DNA of 64,000 nucleotides from Escherichia coli (GCF_002854065.1 NZ_CP024147.1); one strand, 5' to 3'. Positions 1 through 10,847 are shown, counted from the stretch's first letter. The notes: a model not told the origin generated them from the sequence alone. Numbers and translations: made by a program.

Positions 1-272
1 CGTAAGACCGCCGTTAACCGGACAGCAAAGAAATAGCTGCCTGGCGCGAAAAATCACTGCCCGTAACGTATCCATAGCTGGTACGAATAAATTCTCACTT
101 ACTGCACCATAAACGTACACGTTAAAACCTGCCAAACATGCTTCAAAGATCAACAAATTCGCTGTATCGGAAATTTCGGCGTTTCCAGCGTAGGGGGCAG
201 CTTGGAATTCGGAAATTTTCCCACGCTAAGACTATTTTTTATACAGCAACATTTGTTGTTTCGCTCTAACTC

Positions 273-715
273 TCAGAATTGTTTGCCGTGTGGTTCGGAG
301 TTACGATAAAGCGACAGTGCAGGATGTGATGTTAGGAGCGATAGAAAAACGCTTTGGCGATAAAGTACCGGAACAGTCCATCCAGTGGCTGACAGATAAC
401 GGTTAAGCGTACAGAGCGCATGAAACACGGCAGTTCGCCAGAGAGCTGAATCTGAAGCCCTGCACAACGGCAATCAGTAGCCCTCAGAGTAATGGAATGG
501 CAGAACGGTTCGTGAAAACGATGAAGGAAGACTACATCGCGTTCATGCCGAAACCGAATGTAAGAACGGCATTGCATAACCTTGCAGTGGCGATCGAGCA
601 TTACAATGAAAACCATCCGCATAGTGCGTTGGGTTATCGCTCTCCGCGAGAATATCGACGTCAGCGGGTAATGTTAACTTAAGATACAACCCCTGTCTGG
701 AAATAAGGGGGCAAG
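273..715 (+). pseudogene. Remnant of an IS2-like (IS3 family) transposase orfB, 3' part only, with frame disruption
   Basis: Frame at 497..682 ends ...[14 protein letters not shown]..., closely paralleling the C-terminus of IS2 InsD at 5786..6691. An upstream frame (about 290..410) matches the InsD middle region but is broken by a stop. The terminal 35 bp resemble the IS2 right end. Confidence 0.6.
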
Positions 716-960
716 AACATTAGGAATAATTTATATAAAAAAGGTTGTTGTCTCCATGATTTAAACTTAGTGTATATATATACTCTATAATAAATACAGG
801 AAGTATCACGAGACGTCTGGATACGGTAAATAACTAGGAGAAAGTGGTAAGGTATAATGACACTTGTTTTTAATGGAAATATTATTTCTAATCTGTTCAA
901 TATCAATGAAATAATGTACTGCATGGTTGACAAAAATATGCATCACTAAAGAAAAATAGT

Positions 961-3900
961 ATGAATAAGAAAATGCGAATTTCACTATTTCTGGCCAGTG
1001 TACTTTATTCTGTACAATCTCATTTTTCTGGTGCACAAACAATACAACTCAATGGTAATGGAATCTCTGAAAGCATAATCAGGAGTATTACAGGTACTGA
1101 TGGAAACGAGGCGCTAAACATCAGCGTGCCTCCTGAAACCAATTATAATGAAAATATATTATCTGTTGAAAGTAGTGTTAACATCAAAGGAGGAACAAGC
1201 AATACATCAATTGGTGGAGCAGGTGTCTACGGTGTAAACTTCACACTAAATAATAATGGTAGTATTTGGGGAGGAGATGGATATAATGGTGGAGTTGCTG
1301 TCAGTGGAAACGAAATATTGATAAGAAATTACCGAAATGTATATGGGGGTAATGGTCTTGGTGGCTCAGGAAGTAGCGGAGGTGCAGGGTTAAGCGGGGA
1401 TGATATTATAGTTGATAATTACAGAAGTATATACGGAGGTGATGATGTAGGTGGGACAGGTGGTTCCGGTGTAACCGGTAGCAATATTACAGTGCATAAT
1501 TCCGGAGGAATATTGGGCGGTAATGGCGTAAACGGTGGTGATGGTATTAATGGTAGTAATCTTTTCATTACTAACGACAACATGATATCTGGAGGATATG
1601 GAATAAAACAAGGGGGAGATGCTATTTCTGGAAATCAAATCACTTTGAATAATAACGGTATTGTTCAGGGGGGATATGGCCCCGACGGTGGTTGCTCTGT
1701 TTATGGAGAAGATATCCATATTAATAATCATGGTAATCTTTCAGGATTATATAATAGCCCAAAAGATGCTTATAATACATCAATAATTTTTTCTGGCGGG
1801 TATAATTCATTAGATATTTATTCAGATTCTGTGATTAATGGTGATATTAAACTAGCTAGTATACCTGTTAATGGTACAAATGAATTAATTATTAAGAACA
1901 TCAATAACGCAACAGCAATTAATGGTGGGCTAATGATTGGGAATGGCTCATCTGTTTATCTGTCAGGCAAGAACTCCATTTTTAACGGAAATATAAGTAT
2001 TGATGAAGACGCATCTATGAACCTGTCTGTAGGAAATGCTAATGTTCACGCAAATACTATTACATTAAAAAGTGATTCATGGCTTAATATAGACACATCA
2101 ATTAAGAACTGGACTCAGGACTATTACACATTATTGTCGTCAGACACAGGTATCTCGATCGCTGATAATAGTCACATTGTACAATACAATGTATTACTGA
2201 CAGAAGGTGCTGAAAGTTATGTTTATACGTCTTTAAATGACGACGATAACAAACTGATATCCATGCTGAGATGGAATAATACAAAAGGGATGGGATATGG
2301 AACCTTTAATATAGAAAAAGATGCAACTCTGAACATAGGCGTTTCTCTTTCCGATAATCTTTCACCTTTATTATATGATGGCTGGGACGGCAAAAGTCTG
2401 ACAAAATCAGGTAATGGTACTCTTATACTTTCTGCAACAAACAATTATACAGGAAATACAGAGGTTAAATCTGGCGTATTAATTCTTGCTGCACCTGATG
2501 CTCTTGGTCGGACTGAGTATTTATATTTATCCCGTGGCGCAGAACTGGATATGAATGGGTATCCTCAGACAATAAGCAAACTACTGACGGCTGCAGGCTC
2601 TGTGCTGAACATTCATGGCGGAAGCCTGATACTGAATAATGGAGGAGAATCTGCAGGTACTATTGCAGGGGATGGTTCTCTGAACATAAATGGGGGAATG
2701 CTTGATATAACGGGTAATAATCGTAATTTTTCCGGTGTTTTTACCGTGAATAAGGGGGCTCATTTGGCTGTATCCACGGCTGATAATCTGGGGACAGCCT
2801 TTGTTGATAACTATGGCACATTAACTCTGAACAGTACATCAGCATGGCAGCTTACCAACAATATCAGTGGTTATGGTAATGTTCGCAAGACGGGAGCAGG
2901 TGCACTGAACATTAGCGATAACGCAAAATGGACCGGGATGACAGATATTATTCAGGGGACAGTGATACTGGGGAACGCAGATTCACCGGTGATGCTCGGC
3001 AGTAACCAGGTCATTGTTGAAGAGCAGGGCAAACTCTCCGGGTTTGGGGGCGTTGCAGGAAATCTGAGCAATAGTGGTATAGTCGATCTCACTACATATA
3101 TGCCGGGTAATATACTGACTGTCGGAGGGAATTACACTGGCAGAAATGGACTTATTCTCCTCCAGACAGAAACAGGTGGTGACAATTCGAAAACAGATCG
3201 TCTGGTGATTAAAGGTAATGCCAGTGGCCGTACCCGTGTCGCTGTTACTCAGGCCGGTGGTACTGGTGCAGAGACACTTAATGGGATTGAAGTGATTCAC
3301 GTCAGTGGCAATGCTGATAATGCTGAATTCATTCAGACGGAACGTATTACAGCCGGAGCTTATGATTACATACTGAAACGTGGTCAGGGGATTAACAGCA
3401 CTAACTGGTATCTGATTAGCAGAAAAGACATTCCTGTACCACAACCTGAAGCTGTACCGGAAAACCATGATAATAATTTGCGTCCTGAGGCAGGTAGCTA
3501 TGTTGCCAGTATTGCTGCTGCAAATAATCTGTTTGTAACGAATCTGTATGAACGACAGGGACAGGAGTTGTATATCAGCCACATGACAGGAGAAGAAAAT
3601 GAAGCAGGTATCTGGATGTATAATAAAGGAAAACATAATCGCTGGCGTGACAACAGTAGTCAGCTGAGAACCCGGGGGAATAGCTACGTTGTGTTAATAG
3701 GGGGAGATATAGCTCAGTGGAGCCTGAATGGTACCGATCGCTGGCATACAGGTATGATGGCTGGCTATGGTCATAATAATAACAGTACGAATGCCCTGAG
3801 CACCGGATACCATTCGGAAGGAAGAATGAATGGATACACAGCGGGTCTTTATGCAACATGGTATGCCAATGATGAAACACACAATGGTTCTTATCTTGAT

Positions 3901-9966: not shown

Positions 9967-10188
9967 ATGAAAATTATCACCCGTGGTGAAGCCATGCGTA
10001 TTCACCAACAACATCCGACATCCCGTCTTTTTCCGTTCTGTACCGGTAAATACCGCTGGCACGGCAGTGCTGAAGCGTATACCGGTCGTGAAGTGCAGGA
10101 TATTCCCGGTGTGCTGGCCGTGTTTGCTGAACGCCGTAAGGACAGTTTTGGTCCGTATGTCCGGCTGATGAGCGTCACCCTGAACTGA
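9967..10188 (+). CDS. DUF987 small protein of the YeeT/YpjJ/YkfH family (prophage module)
   Basis: 73 aa (MKIITRGEAMRIHQQHPTSRLFPFCTGKYRWHGSAEAYTGREVQDIPGVLAVFAERRKDSFGPYVRLMSVTLN) in the conserved position between the RadC-like and antitoxin genes. Confidence 0.75.
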   Translation: MKIITRGEAMRIHQQHPTSRLFPFCTGKYRWHGSAEAYTGREVQDIPGVLAVFAERRKDSFGPYVRLMSVTLN

Positions 10189-10261
10189 GTGGGAATTCTG
10201 ATGAGCAGAATTATCGCCACTACCGGACCATTCTTAGCCGATTTTCTGTAAGGATTTTATC

Positions 10262-10654
10262 GTGTCAGACACACTCCCCGACGACAATCACGACCGCCCC
10301 TGGTGGGGGCTGCCCTGCACAGTGACGCCCTGTTTCGGGGCACGTCTGGTGCAGGAGGGTAACCGGTTGCATTACCTTGCCGACCGCGCCGGTATCAGAG
10401 GCCGGTTCAGCGATGCGGATGCATACCATCTGGACCAGGCCTTTCCACTGCTGATGAAACAACTGGAACTCATGCTCACCAGCGGTGAACTGAATCCCCG
10501 CCATCAGCATACCATCACGCTGTATGCAAAAGGGCTGACCTGTGAAGCTGATACTCTCGGCAGTTGTAGTTTCGTTTATATGGCTGTTTATGCTACCCGA
10601 TTCTCAAATCAATTACCGAAAGCTTCTGTTCATCAACTAACTCATTACTTTTAA
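10262..10654 (+). CDS. CbeA/YeeU-family type IV antitoxin homolog with a replaced C-terminal tail; no toxin gene follows
   Basis: MSDTLPDDNHDRPWWGLPCTVTPCFGARLVQEGNRLHYLADRAGIRGRFSDADAYHLDQAFPLLMKQLELMLTSGELNPRHQHTITLYAKGLTCEADTLGSC... matches the antitoxin family to about residue 115, then reads into unrelated sequence. Confidence 0.7.
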   Translation: MSDTLPDDNHDRPWWGLPCTVTPCFGARLVQEGNRLHYLADRAGIRGRFSDADAYHLDQAFPLLMKQLELMLTSGELNPRHQHTITLYAKGLTCEADTLGSCSFVYMAVYATRFSNQLPKASVHQLTHYF

Positions 10655-10847
10655 TGATGGGGCCCTTTCTGGGGCCCAAGAAATTAACAACGCTAACAAA
10701 CAACATAAATAACAATAAATTAAATAAAAAATTTCATTCCTGCAGGGGACCATCCTTGTGTTTATCCCTAAAACCACATAAAAACCGTAAATTAAATTCG
10801 AACTAGCAGGCCGAATAAGGCACACCAGGAACTCGTGGTTTTATTCA

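Follow-up and report, generated by a model that had tools for sequence, protein, structure and literature searches.

What occupies the site between argW and dsdC in this strain of Escherichia coli, and is it related to the CPS-53 (KpLE1) element found there in K-12? The first-pass annotation of the window (the whole stretch of 64,000 nucleotides analysed here) had described its first 10.8 kb as a mosaic, decayed accessory island that seemed to have occupied the hotspot independently of the K-12 element. We find that a degenerate CP4/P4-type integrative island very probably sits in the 3' end of argW, with positions 1–10752 as its right-hand part (~10.75 kb). It is an ordinary island, riddled with IS elements, all of whose parts have already been described and are annotated in public genomes. 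The components recognised at first pass (IS2-like remnant, autotransporter, IS2 with its TTTAC duplication, IS30 and three tail genes) are all in place among the features below.

1..301, no strand: unassigned island DNA, part of the conserved block accompanying aatA
302..717, plus: IS2-like remnant, the last ~420 bp of an IS2-group IS3-family element (NF006918 TnpB, E 1e-37)
961..4458, plus: aatA, APEC autotransporter adhesin A gene (intact 3,498-bp ORF, 1165 aa)
4459..5371, no strand: decayed gene fragments (PGAP pseudogenes at matching positions in CUWW06, 6EVA and ATCC 8739)
5372..6702, plus: complete IS2, 1331 bp (imperfect terminal inverted repeats, full-length TnpB, 727 bits)
6765..7078, plus: 5' end of a non-IS911 IS3-family element, 314 bp (start of homology in other genomes; intact copy L012)
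7079..8299, plus: complete IS30, 1221 bp (inverted repeats, 383-aa transposase, NF033563, E 9e-83)
8300..9215, plus: 3' part of IS911, 916 bp, with the end of orfA, orfB and the right terminal repeat (profile and K-12 comparison)
9216..9364, plus: fragment of a BrxL (BREX) Lon-like S16 protease gene (TIGR02653, E 9e-19, profile positions 567–625 of 675)
9362..9364, no strand: deletion joint with a 3-bp overlap (comparison with the 6EVA island)
9428..9904, plus: yeeS-like RadC/JAB gene (TIGR00608, 142 bits, above cutoff; phrog_10276)
9967..10188, plus: yeeT-like DUF987 gene (PF06174, E 2e-39, full length)
10262..10654, plus: yeeU'/cbeA-like type IV antitoxin gene, 130 aa (PF06154, E 1e-52, positions 1–100 of 101)
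10592..10735, no strand: AT-rich arm adjoining attR (conserved in the island lineage; ~80% identical in NT1F25)
10736..10752, plus: attR, direct copy of the argW 3' end, ATTCCTGCAGGGGACACCA in relatives (repeat match to argW)
10848..11789, minus: dsdC, core flank outside the island (gene annotation)

The actual right-hand limit of the island is the repeat attR, at 10736–10752. It reads ATTCCTGCAGGGGAC(CA) and is 17 nt long compared with the 19 nt of the argW 3' end, two bases (AC) being missing; its 15-mer occurs once in the window, with zero occurrences expected by chance. From attR to the dsdC stop is 95 bp, equal to the argW–dsdC spacer of unoccupied genomes, and similarity to K-12 begins at the att core (10740) and runs rightwards at 98.1% identity. 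The island thus abuts the 3' end of dsdC, which lies on the minus strand, as had been proposed. The sharp junction placed earlier at around 10600 to 10847 is real as a boundary but consists of two junctions: the end of homology to the canonical yeeU/cbeA gene at 10591, and attR.

The position of the left end comes from the nearest relative, CUWW06, in which argW is found, with a tyrosine integrase, 5.8 kb upstream of the equivalent of window position 1 and the full 19-nt repeat of the argW 3' end is found at both ends of the island. The two islands are 99.8% identical, differing by 5 SNPs and 2 indels, and the 17 kb beyond the island are 99.994% identical (one base and two IS1 insertions). From this near-identity argW is, with high confidence, placed just upstream of the window start; the prediction that argW lies outside the window and that an integrase would be found upstream is upheld in CUWW06. 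The gaps of 2 bp in attR and of 15 bp, in frame, in yeeU' relative to CUWW06 could be strain-specific mutations or sequencing errors. A tyrosine integrase also adjoins argW in the islands of 6EVA and wlxctx60. The CUWW06 enzyme is recognised by NF007246 and phrog_1 and shares 48% identity with K-12 IntS.

The island has in common with CPS-53 the att core of argW, the right chromosomal flank and, going by CUWW06, a related integrase, whereas the content of CPS-53 (torI, ypdJ and the yfd genes) is absent and no similarity is found left of the att core. The K-12 layout does differ, as the first-pass annotation had stated: in MG1655 the order is argW, intS, the rest of CPS-53, ypdJ, torI, pawZ and dsdC. 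These comparisons point to an element distinct from CPS-53, with an integrase related to IntS, using the same site. With a flank common to K-12, island-side DNA unrelated to CPS-53 and, in CUWW06, a different integrase, the suggestion of independent occupation of the hotspot is well founded. It is also the already published view of the locus, as cited from Moritz & Welch 2006 in PMC7545054 and PMC4366372. The variable argW–dsdCXA genetic island (Moritz & Welch 2006 J Clin Microbiol 44:4038; Jahreis et al. 2002, both as quoted in those two papers) holds strain-specific inserts at the same site, namely CPS-53 in K-12, PAI-CFT073-argW, SHI-O and phage Kapi1, and other variants carry csc genes in place of dsdC and part of dsdX. 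The literature searched contained no description of aatA-carrying, IS2-bearing, internally deleted content at argW and returned only the unrelated aatA of EAEC.

Counts from 5,426 complete E. coli genomes put figures on this already known argW–dsdC hotspot. In 937 (17%), argW directly adjoins dsdC; a torI–dsdC junction of the CPS-53 type is found in 857 (16%), and the junction seen in the window in 80 (1.5%). The whole arrangement occurs in one of the 5,426, CUWW06, at 99.8% identity, and only three records extend over 80% or more of the window's first 12 kb. The right end adjoins dsdC in some strains and a second integrase remnant with cscBKAR in others, which shows frequent reshuffling of the locus, and the interiors differ widely among the 80 genomes that share the junction. 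With argW also described in print as a recombination hotspot (PMC4366372), it is possible, if doubtful, that in this lineage the whole argW–dsdC segment arrived from another E. coli through homologous recombination between flanking core genes, without the action of the island's own integrase. What we call independent occupation might then, on the same tentative footing, be the replacement of one allele by another at such a hotspot and not a new site-specific insertion. The att repeat nevertheless requires at least one site-specific integration, and the flanks are so nearly identical to CUWW06 (99.994%) that recombination tracts are not resolvable. Import of this kind is moreover compatible with an integrative island at argW and concerns only the route by which this lineage acquired it.

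The affinity of the island is seen at its right end. In K-12, CP4-44 has the order yeeP-flu-yeeR-yeeS-yeeT-cbeA-cbtA-yeeW, and CP4-6 and CP4-57 are its kin. The window retains RadC (YeeS), DUF987 (YeeT) and YeeU near the right end in this same order, as do its relatives, and its island family has in common with CP4-type islands the association with a tRNA gene and a P4-family integrase. It differs from them in that CbtA and the later genes are missing, the 3' end of yeeU is fused to the attR arm, and the middle of the backbone is deleted, with an aatA block in its place; the integration site, argW, is not that of the K-12 CP4 elements. Longer islands at the same site carry the full CP4-type backbone of GTPase, Ag43, DUF932, antirestriction, RadC, DUF987 and YeeU'. 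Relative to the 6EVA island, 13.75 kb are absent from the window at 9362–9364, a joint shared by CUWW06. The missing segment holds zinc-ribbon genes, a Gp2-like gene, an hha-like gene, an excisionase-like HTH gene and the GTPase, as well as Ag43, DUF932 and the antirestriction gene, and no excisionase or recombination directionality factor was found in window positions 1–10752 by gene and profile search. The BrxL fragment is bounded by IS911 on the left and by this deletion on the right, and is longer in 6EVA and wlxctx60.

The three tail genes had been called a prophage tail. RadC, DUF987 and the antitoxin are all present, but the word prophage is loose, there being no phage structural genes; they make up the end that CP4-type integrative islands conserve, in this case lacking the CbtA toxin. 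CP4-6, CP4-44 and CP4-57 are traditionally called cryptic prophages, and the integrase, RadC and DUF987 all have PHROG matches, as would be expected of a remnant of a true temperate phage comparable to CPS-53. Such an origin is nonetheless very unlikely: capsid, tail, terminase, lysis and phage replication genes are absent from both the window and its longer relatives, the backbone from GTPase to YeeU is typical of integrative islands, and the island side has no similarity to CPS-53.

The antitoxin gene has been altered at its end. Its CbeA domain is complete and 89% identical to canonical YeeU over 112 aa, with the last ~10 canonical codons exchanged for a 20-codon tail from 10592. No CbtA-family toxin gene lies downstream, where there are only 144 bp of AT-rich DNA and then attR. 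The longer islands at argW likewise end without the toxin, and D2 and BLK16 have the canonical tail, CbtA included, in their selC islands.

The IS elements account for much of the mosaic. The IS2-like remnant matches positions 203–289 of 301 in the IS2 TnpB model (profile search) and at the DNA level is 76–80% identical to the 3' portion of the window's complete IS2, the similarity extending to an IS2-like right terminal repeat. The remnant is interrupted by an in-frame stop and is a pseudogene in the CUWW06 annotation. The complete IS2 has the length (1331 bp), terminal repeats, orfA/orfB and 5-bp target duplication expected of this element, and sits within a RelE-toxin fragment. Both copies of the duplication, TTTAC, reported as intact at first pass, were found (5367–5371 and 6703–6707). 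In three related islands that have no IS2 the two sides of the site join without a break, overlapping by 5 bp, which indicates a clean insertion.

IS30 is equally complete, with the expected 1221 bp, ~26-bp inverted repeats and single ~383-aa transposase, but its surroundings are not those of a simple insertion. The flanking dinucleotides are unequal (GT and AC), so the 2-bp target duplication is absent, and the two flanks come from different IS3-family elements. The left flank holds the left terminal repeat TGAATCGCCAC..., orfA and sequence to just beyond the A6G frameshift motif, with homology in other genomes beginning at 6762–6765. An intact copy of this element (L012) is 98.7% identical to the left flank (6765–7078) and has no similarity to the right flank (8300–9215), indicating that the region is a chimera. 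The left part of K-12 IS911A gave no blastn match to 6765–7078. The right IS30–IS911 joint is identical to that of IS911A::IS30A (insN/insI1) in CP4-6 of K-12, with 97.7% identity to MG1655 over 7059–8728. The K-12 copy has IS911 on both sides and a 2-bp duplication (AC), unlike the window, where the left flank is another IS3-family element and the duplication is missing. The earlier description of an IS3-family element disrupted by IS30 thus holds in that IS30 lies between IS3-family sequences, and fails in that these belong to two elements and not to a single interrupted one.

Multi-copy IS elements are dense here and are the usual cause of mis-assembly, so that IS2, IS30 and IS911 repeats could in principle have been mis-joined; the chance of this is negligible, however, given that every joint is present in CUWW06, an independent complete genome, that the IS2 duplication is perfect and its site continuous in IS2-free genomes, and that the IS30 joints are seen repeatedly in many genomes. 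It is just as improbable that this arrangement is ancestral to E. coli and conserved at the locus, a proposition for which we sought supporting evidence and found none, and which is refuted by the three junction counts and by the three records covering the first 12 kb.

The autotransporter can be named. Its single intact ORF contains PATR repeats, an autochaperone domain and a β-barrel (domain searches), an architecture that assigns the predicted product to the type Va (AIDA-I-type) autotransporters; the N-terminus is MNKKMRISLFLASVLYSVQSHFSGA, with the signal peptide assigned by eye. The gene is 98.5% identical in nucleotide and 98% in amino acid sequence to the allele of the BL21(DE3) lineage, 24 of the 26 amino acid differences falling within the first ~130 residues, and the 243 bp 5' of it are identical to the BL21-lineage upstream region. 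The published aatA ORF is 3,498 bp, with the BL21(DE3)-lineage gene named as its homologue (Dai et al. 2010, PMC2944236) and 99% identical to aatA of IMT5155 according to that paper. ORF length and identity to the BL21 allele, with the link to IMT5155 made through PMC2944236, therefore identify the window gene, at the level of sequence, as the published aatA, whose product is an adhesin associated with virulence in avian pathogenic E. coli. In BL21 its transcription is low and the protein undetectable (PMC2944236); the BL21-type upstream region would suggest that the gene is poorly expressed in this strain too, where its role in adhesion is putative.

We found aatA in 688 of the 5,426 complete genomes, both chromosomal and plasmid-borne. 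Its IS-rich surroundings have been noted before (Dai et al. 2010, PMC2944236, and Li et al. 2010 as cited there), and the setting in the window agrees with the published one in ORF length, an IS2-like remnant upstream, IS30 downstream and occurrence on chromosome and plasmid. Three flanking variants have been typed, fecI, ykgN and eitD, with more than half of positive strains fitting none (PMC2944236); the argW location is one such untyped context, and the argW island joins the list.

Around aatA, window 1–5371 aligns at 98.4–99.9% to argW islands (L008, L002) and selC islands (L003, L007), and plasmids also carry the aatA portion of the block (about 720 to at least 4700). The counterpart of 1–301 in CUWW06 has no PGAP feature, and 4459–5371 contains a frameshifted hypothetical gene, an alkaline-phosphatase fragment, the start of the RelE-toxin fragment and a terminator-like hairpin (5230–5248). 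GC content is uneven in the composition profile of the window, 33–47% over aatA and 52–58% over IS2, IS911 and the tail.

A history can be proposed, the order of events being drawn from a handful of relatives and not from a phylogeny. A P4-family tyrosine integrase would have recombined the element into argW, restoring the tRNA end and leaving the 19-nt copy (attR) 95 bp from the dsdC stop. The aatA-carrying block (1–9364) would have been acquired by recombination between sister islands, as suggested by its near base-for-base presence in selC islands (B-lineage strains, ATCC 8739) and by the aatA portion on plasmids. The IS30 chimera may have arisen by recombination of two IS30 copies or by IS30-mediated adjacent deletion, and IS2 would have inserted, generating the TTTAC duplication. 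The 13.75-kb deletion, at its 3-bp overlap, would have taken out the stretch of backbone between the BrxL fragment and a point just 5' of yeeS, and with it the excisionase-like gene, an older deletion having earlier claimed the CbtA toxin gene, along with the yeeU end on one side of it and the genes beyond it on the other. The element is now probably fixed in place; its intact cargo comprises aatA with its BL21-type upstream region, yeeS and yeeT, and an antitoxin gene that has no toxin partner.

As to the antitoxin, YeeU' is unbroken in the main lineage, its 135-aa form being recorded on at least 1,000 contigs. It might persist by neutralising CbtA-family toxins of sister CP4-type islands elsewhere in the genome, an idea we think unlikely and one weakened by the 15 bp deleted from the window copy and by a frameshifted yeeU' in NT1F25, a diverged lineage. 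If true, YeeU' would be an anti-addiction or 'immunity' gene permitting the loss or remodelling of sister islands. Beyond annotation, including the exact boundary now fixed at attR, the significance of the island is small; it illustrates how an integrative island may be worn down by IS elements and by exchange among sister islands until it has probably lost its mobility.

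The first 10,752 nt of the window form the right-hand part of an island at the argW site, with the following contents.

Features of the island and the adjoining dsdC gene, from left to right (window coordinates)
302–717: IS2-like remnant, the 3'-terminal ~420 bp of an IS2-group element (IS2 TnpB model, positions 203–289 of 301, E 1e-37)
961–4458: autotransporter ORF, intact, 3,498 bp (1165 aa, type Va; PATR repeats, autochaperone domain and beta-barrel)
4459–5371: decayed fragments, genes only in pieces (annotated as pseudogenes in relatives)
5372–6702: IS2, 1331 bp, with TTTAC on each flank
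6765–7078: left IS30 flank, 5' end of an IS3-family element, with the terminal repeat TGAATCGCCAC at its start
7079–8299: IS30, 1221 bp, with inverted repeats and a 383-aa transposase
8300–9215: right IS30 flank, 3' part of IS911
9216–9364: fragment of a BrxL (Lon-like) gene
9428–9904: yeeS-like RadC/JAB gene
9967–10188: yeeT-like DUF987 gene
10262–10654: CbeA-family antitoxin gene
10736–10750: attR, ATTCCTGCAGGGGAC (single occurrence in the window; chance expectation none)
10848–11789, minus strand: dsdC

The IS2-like remnant, the autotransporter and the complete IS2 with its TTTAC duplication had all been claimed in the first-pass annotation and are borne out. The remnant, which retains an IS2-like terminal repeat and contains an in-frame stop, has 76–80% identity to the complete copy of IS2 at 5372–6702. 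The calls for DUF987 and for the antitoxin gene (here termed yeeU' for its replaced 3' end) come from Pfam; a search of NCBIfam gave no match for either. An Rfam scan of window positions 1–12500 gave no match and a tRNA scan found no tRNA gene inside or adjoining the island within the window. The BrxL (BREX Lon-like protease) fragment suggests that a defence system was once within the island block.

Over the island, the nearest complete genome, CUWW06, is 99.8% identical to the window (the differences are five SNPs and two indels, of 15 bp and 2 bp), and over the following 17 kb the identity is 99.994%. argW and a tyrosine integrase gene are shown in this near-identical genome only: argW lies 5.8 kb upstream of the equivalent of window position 1, with the integrase gene after it, and the 19 nt at the 3' end of argW, ...ATTCCTGCAGGGGACACCA, are repeated at the right end of the island. 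This agrees with the earlier proposal of an argW integration site outside the window. The att repeat of the window is two bases short. Rightward of it, from pawZ onwards, the window is collinear with K-12 at 98.1% identity, and the 95-bp spacer between attR and dsdC is the same as in genomes where argW directly adjoins dsdC. The sharp junction previously placed at 10600–10847 is present and can be refined to two, an internal joint at 10591, the last position with homology to canonical yeeU, and the end of the island at 10752. As for composition, which had been put forward as a means of defining the boundaries, GC content is patchy across the region and gives the right boundary no sharp mark; it is the att repeat that marks it. 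Just past attR, CUWW06 carries an inserted IS1 flanked by a 9-bp duplication; the window is the pre-insertion state. The differences from CUWW06 at 10277 (15 bp deleted in frame from the antitoxin gene) and 10749 (loss of 2 bp, AC, in the att core) may each reflect either a genuine mutation or an error in sequencing.

Longer islands at the argW site occur in 6EVA, CFSAN061762, wlxctx60 and L9, and their backbone has the order integrase, excisionase-like HTH, GTPase, Ag43, DUF932, antirestriction, RadC, DUF987, YeeU', attR. This backbone is that of the CP4-type integrative islands and not of a phage, and it has no structural, lysis or replication genes. The three genes of the supposed "prophage tail" (RadC/JAB, DUF987 and the CbeA-family antitoxin) are as described, but they form the conserved end of a CP4-type island rather than a prophage tail. 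The selC-associated islands of strain D2 and a BL21 derivative continue past yeeU with the CbtA toxin, DUF5983, DUF957 and DUF4942, genes that are absent from the argW lineage. The replacement in yeeU' is confined to the final few codons and leaves the CbeA domain whole (model positions 1–100 of 101). NT1F25 has a ~80% identical version of the toxin-less end in which yeeU' is frameshifted; thus this end is old, and conservation of the antitoxin is not universal. Both the window and CUWW06 are without 13.75 kb found in 6EVA, the joint lying at 9362–9364 with a 3-bp overlap. As the lost segment includes the excisionase-like gene, and attR has the 2-bp gap, the element is probably immobile.

In three related islands without IS2 the sequence is continuous at the IS2 site, with a 5-bp overlap, so that the IS2 of the window is a simple and fairly recent insertion. 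The IS2 of 6EVA is at a different location in its island, which rules it out as the same insertion. The element described as IS3-family and disrupted by IS30 requires a correction: IS30 does lie between IS3-family sequences, but its two flanks derive from different elements. The left flank and the 5' end of an IS3-family element that is present intact on a plasmid (L012) share 98.7% identity, and the remainder of that element has no similarity to the right flank in the window. The IS30/IS911 joint is the one found in K-12 CP4-6, where IS30A interrupts a true IS911A and is flanked by a 2-bp duplication, AC. In the window the dinucleotides flanking IS30 are GT and AC, and hence there is no target duplication. 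The two simplest readings are that the chimera arose by recombination between two IS30 copies or that an IS30-mediated adjacent deletion retained the old right joint. A single IS911 interrupted by IS30, as in K-12, is rejected, since the intact copy of the left element has another 3' part and other terminal repeats and the target duplication is missing. The chimera is common to ATCC 8739, the BL21 lineage, 6EVA and many others, and must therefore be old. IS30 is found a few bases past an A6G frameshift motif in three IS3-family contexts, namely the window (7070–7079), K-12 IS911A and a second K-12 copy adjoining yagB, where it is inverted (comparison sequences L013, 2030–2045, and L011, 4800–4815); this position looks like a repeatedly used IS30 target.

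The autotransporter gene is aatA, which encodes an adhesin of avian pathogenic E. coli and was published as a 3,498-bp ORF with IS2-like sequence upstream, IS30 downstream and 99%-identical homologues in BL21(DE3) and REL606 (Dai et al. 2010, PMC2944236). The window gene has exactly this length. Compared with the single copy of a BL21(DE3) derivative, its identity is 98.5% for DNA and 98% for protein, and 24 of the 26 amino-acid differences from BL21-type AatA fall within the first ~130 residues; the allele is a mosaic. At the nucleotide level, 49 differences from the BL21-type allele lie within the gene's first ~540 bp (window 961–1500). The 243 bp upstream of aatA show no differences from the BL21 lineage, and because transcription in BL21 is low and the protein undetectable (PMC2944236), weak expression in the window strain is a reasonable guess. 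We find aatA in 688 of 5,426 complete genomes, at 486 chromosomal and 249 plasmid places, and also on 236 plasmid records. The block 1–9364 is common to the selC islands at 98.4–99.9% identity, a similarity in sequence that points to exchange of DNA between sister islands. A literature search for aatA together with argW retrieved papers solely on the aatA of EAEC, an unrelated gene.

Elsewhere in the window, an extra 1.75 kb (52003–53750) lies between yfeD and gltX relative to K-12. This insertion belongs to the IS200/IS605 family and carries a gene for an RNA-guided TnpB at 52046–53254 on the minus strand (NF040570, E 3e-114) and, at about 53277–53700, a TnpA of IS200 type (NF033573, E 9e-43). 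At 55920–56326, beside lysV, the 4.5 kb of K-12 xapR-xapB-xapA-yfeN are missing and ~400 bp stand in their place; a 113-aa glutamine-rich ORF in this replacement (55996–56337) had no NCBIfam match. The nupC-pdeA interval (~48420) is without the IS186C present there in K-12 MG1655.

In K-12 the interval between argW and dsdC is taken by the cryptic prophage CPS-53, with ypdJ, torI and pawZ adjoining dsdC, a layout different from that of the window, as the first-pass annotation had noted. The island integrase, as seen in CUWW06, is only 48% identical to IntS of CPS-53. Among the 5,426 complete genomes over which the states of the site were counted, 937 have an empty site with argW directly adjoining dsdC, 857 a CPS-53-type torI-dsdC junction and 80 the yeeU'-attR-dsdC junction of the window. 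In most of the other genomes the 3' end of dsdC had no match; where inspected, such genomes had csc genes in place of dsdC. In wlxctx60 (L002, 20302–20507) and 6EVA (L008, 37345–37550), the DNA beyond attR holds a second integrase gene, now a degenerate pseudogene, and after it cscBKAR, which replaces dsdC and part of dsdX; this arrangement is a tandem occupancy of the argW site. In strain L9 (L015, 28776–30488) a relative of the island lies next to a dsdC gene interrupted by IS1.

The initial observation is thus confirmed, once the IS30 element is corrected to a chimera and the boundary refined to the exact attR, and its interpretation as independent occupation of the same hotspot is supported. 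Nothing here is new in kind: all the elements belong to known families, the source genome is public, a near-identical genome is annotated in RefSeq, and both the hotspot and the context of aatA are published. The literature treats argW as a recombination hotspot (PMC4366372) and reports high variability for the argW-dsdCXA island (Moritz & Welch 2006, as cited in PMC7545054); further published occupants are PAI-CFT073-argW, SHI-O and phage Kapi1. At least 80% of the first 12 kb is covered in only three records, and from this and the site counts it follows that the arrangement in the window is neither ancestral nor common in E. coli and that several unrelated elements use the site.
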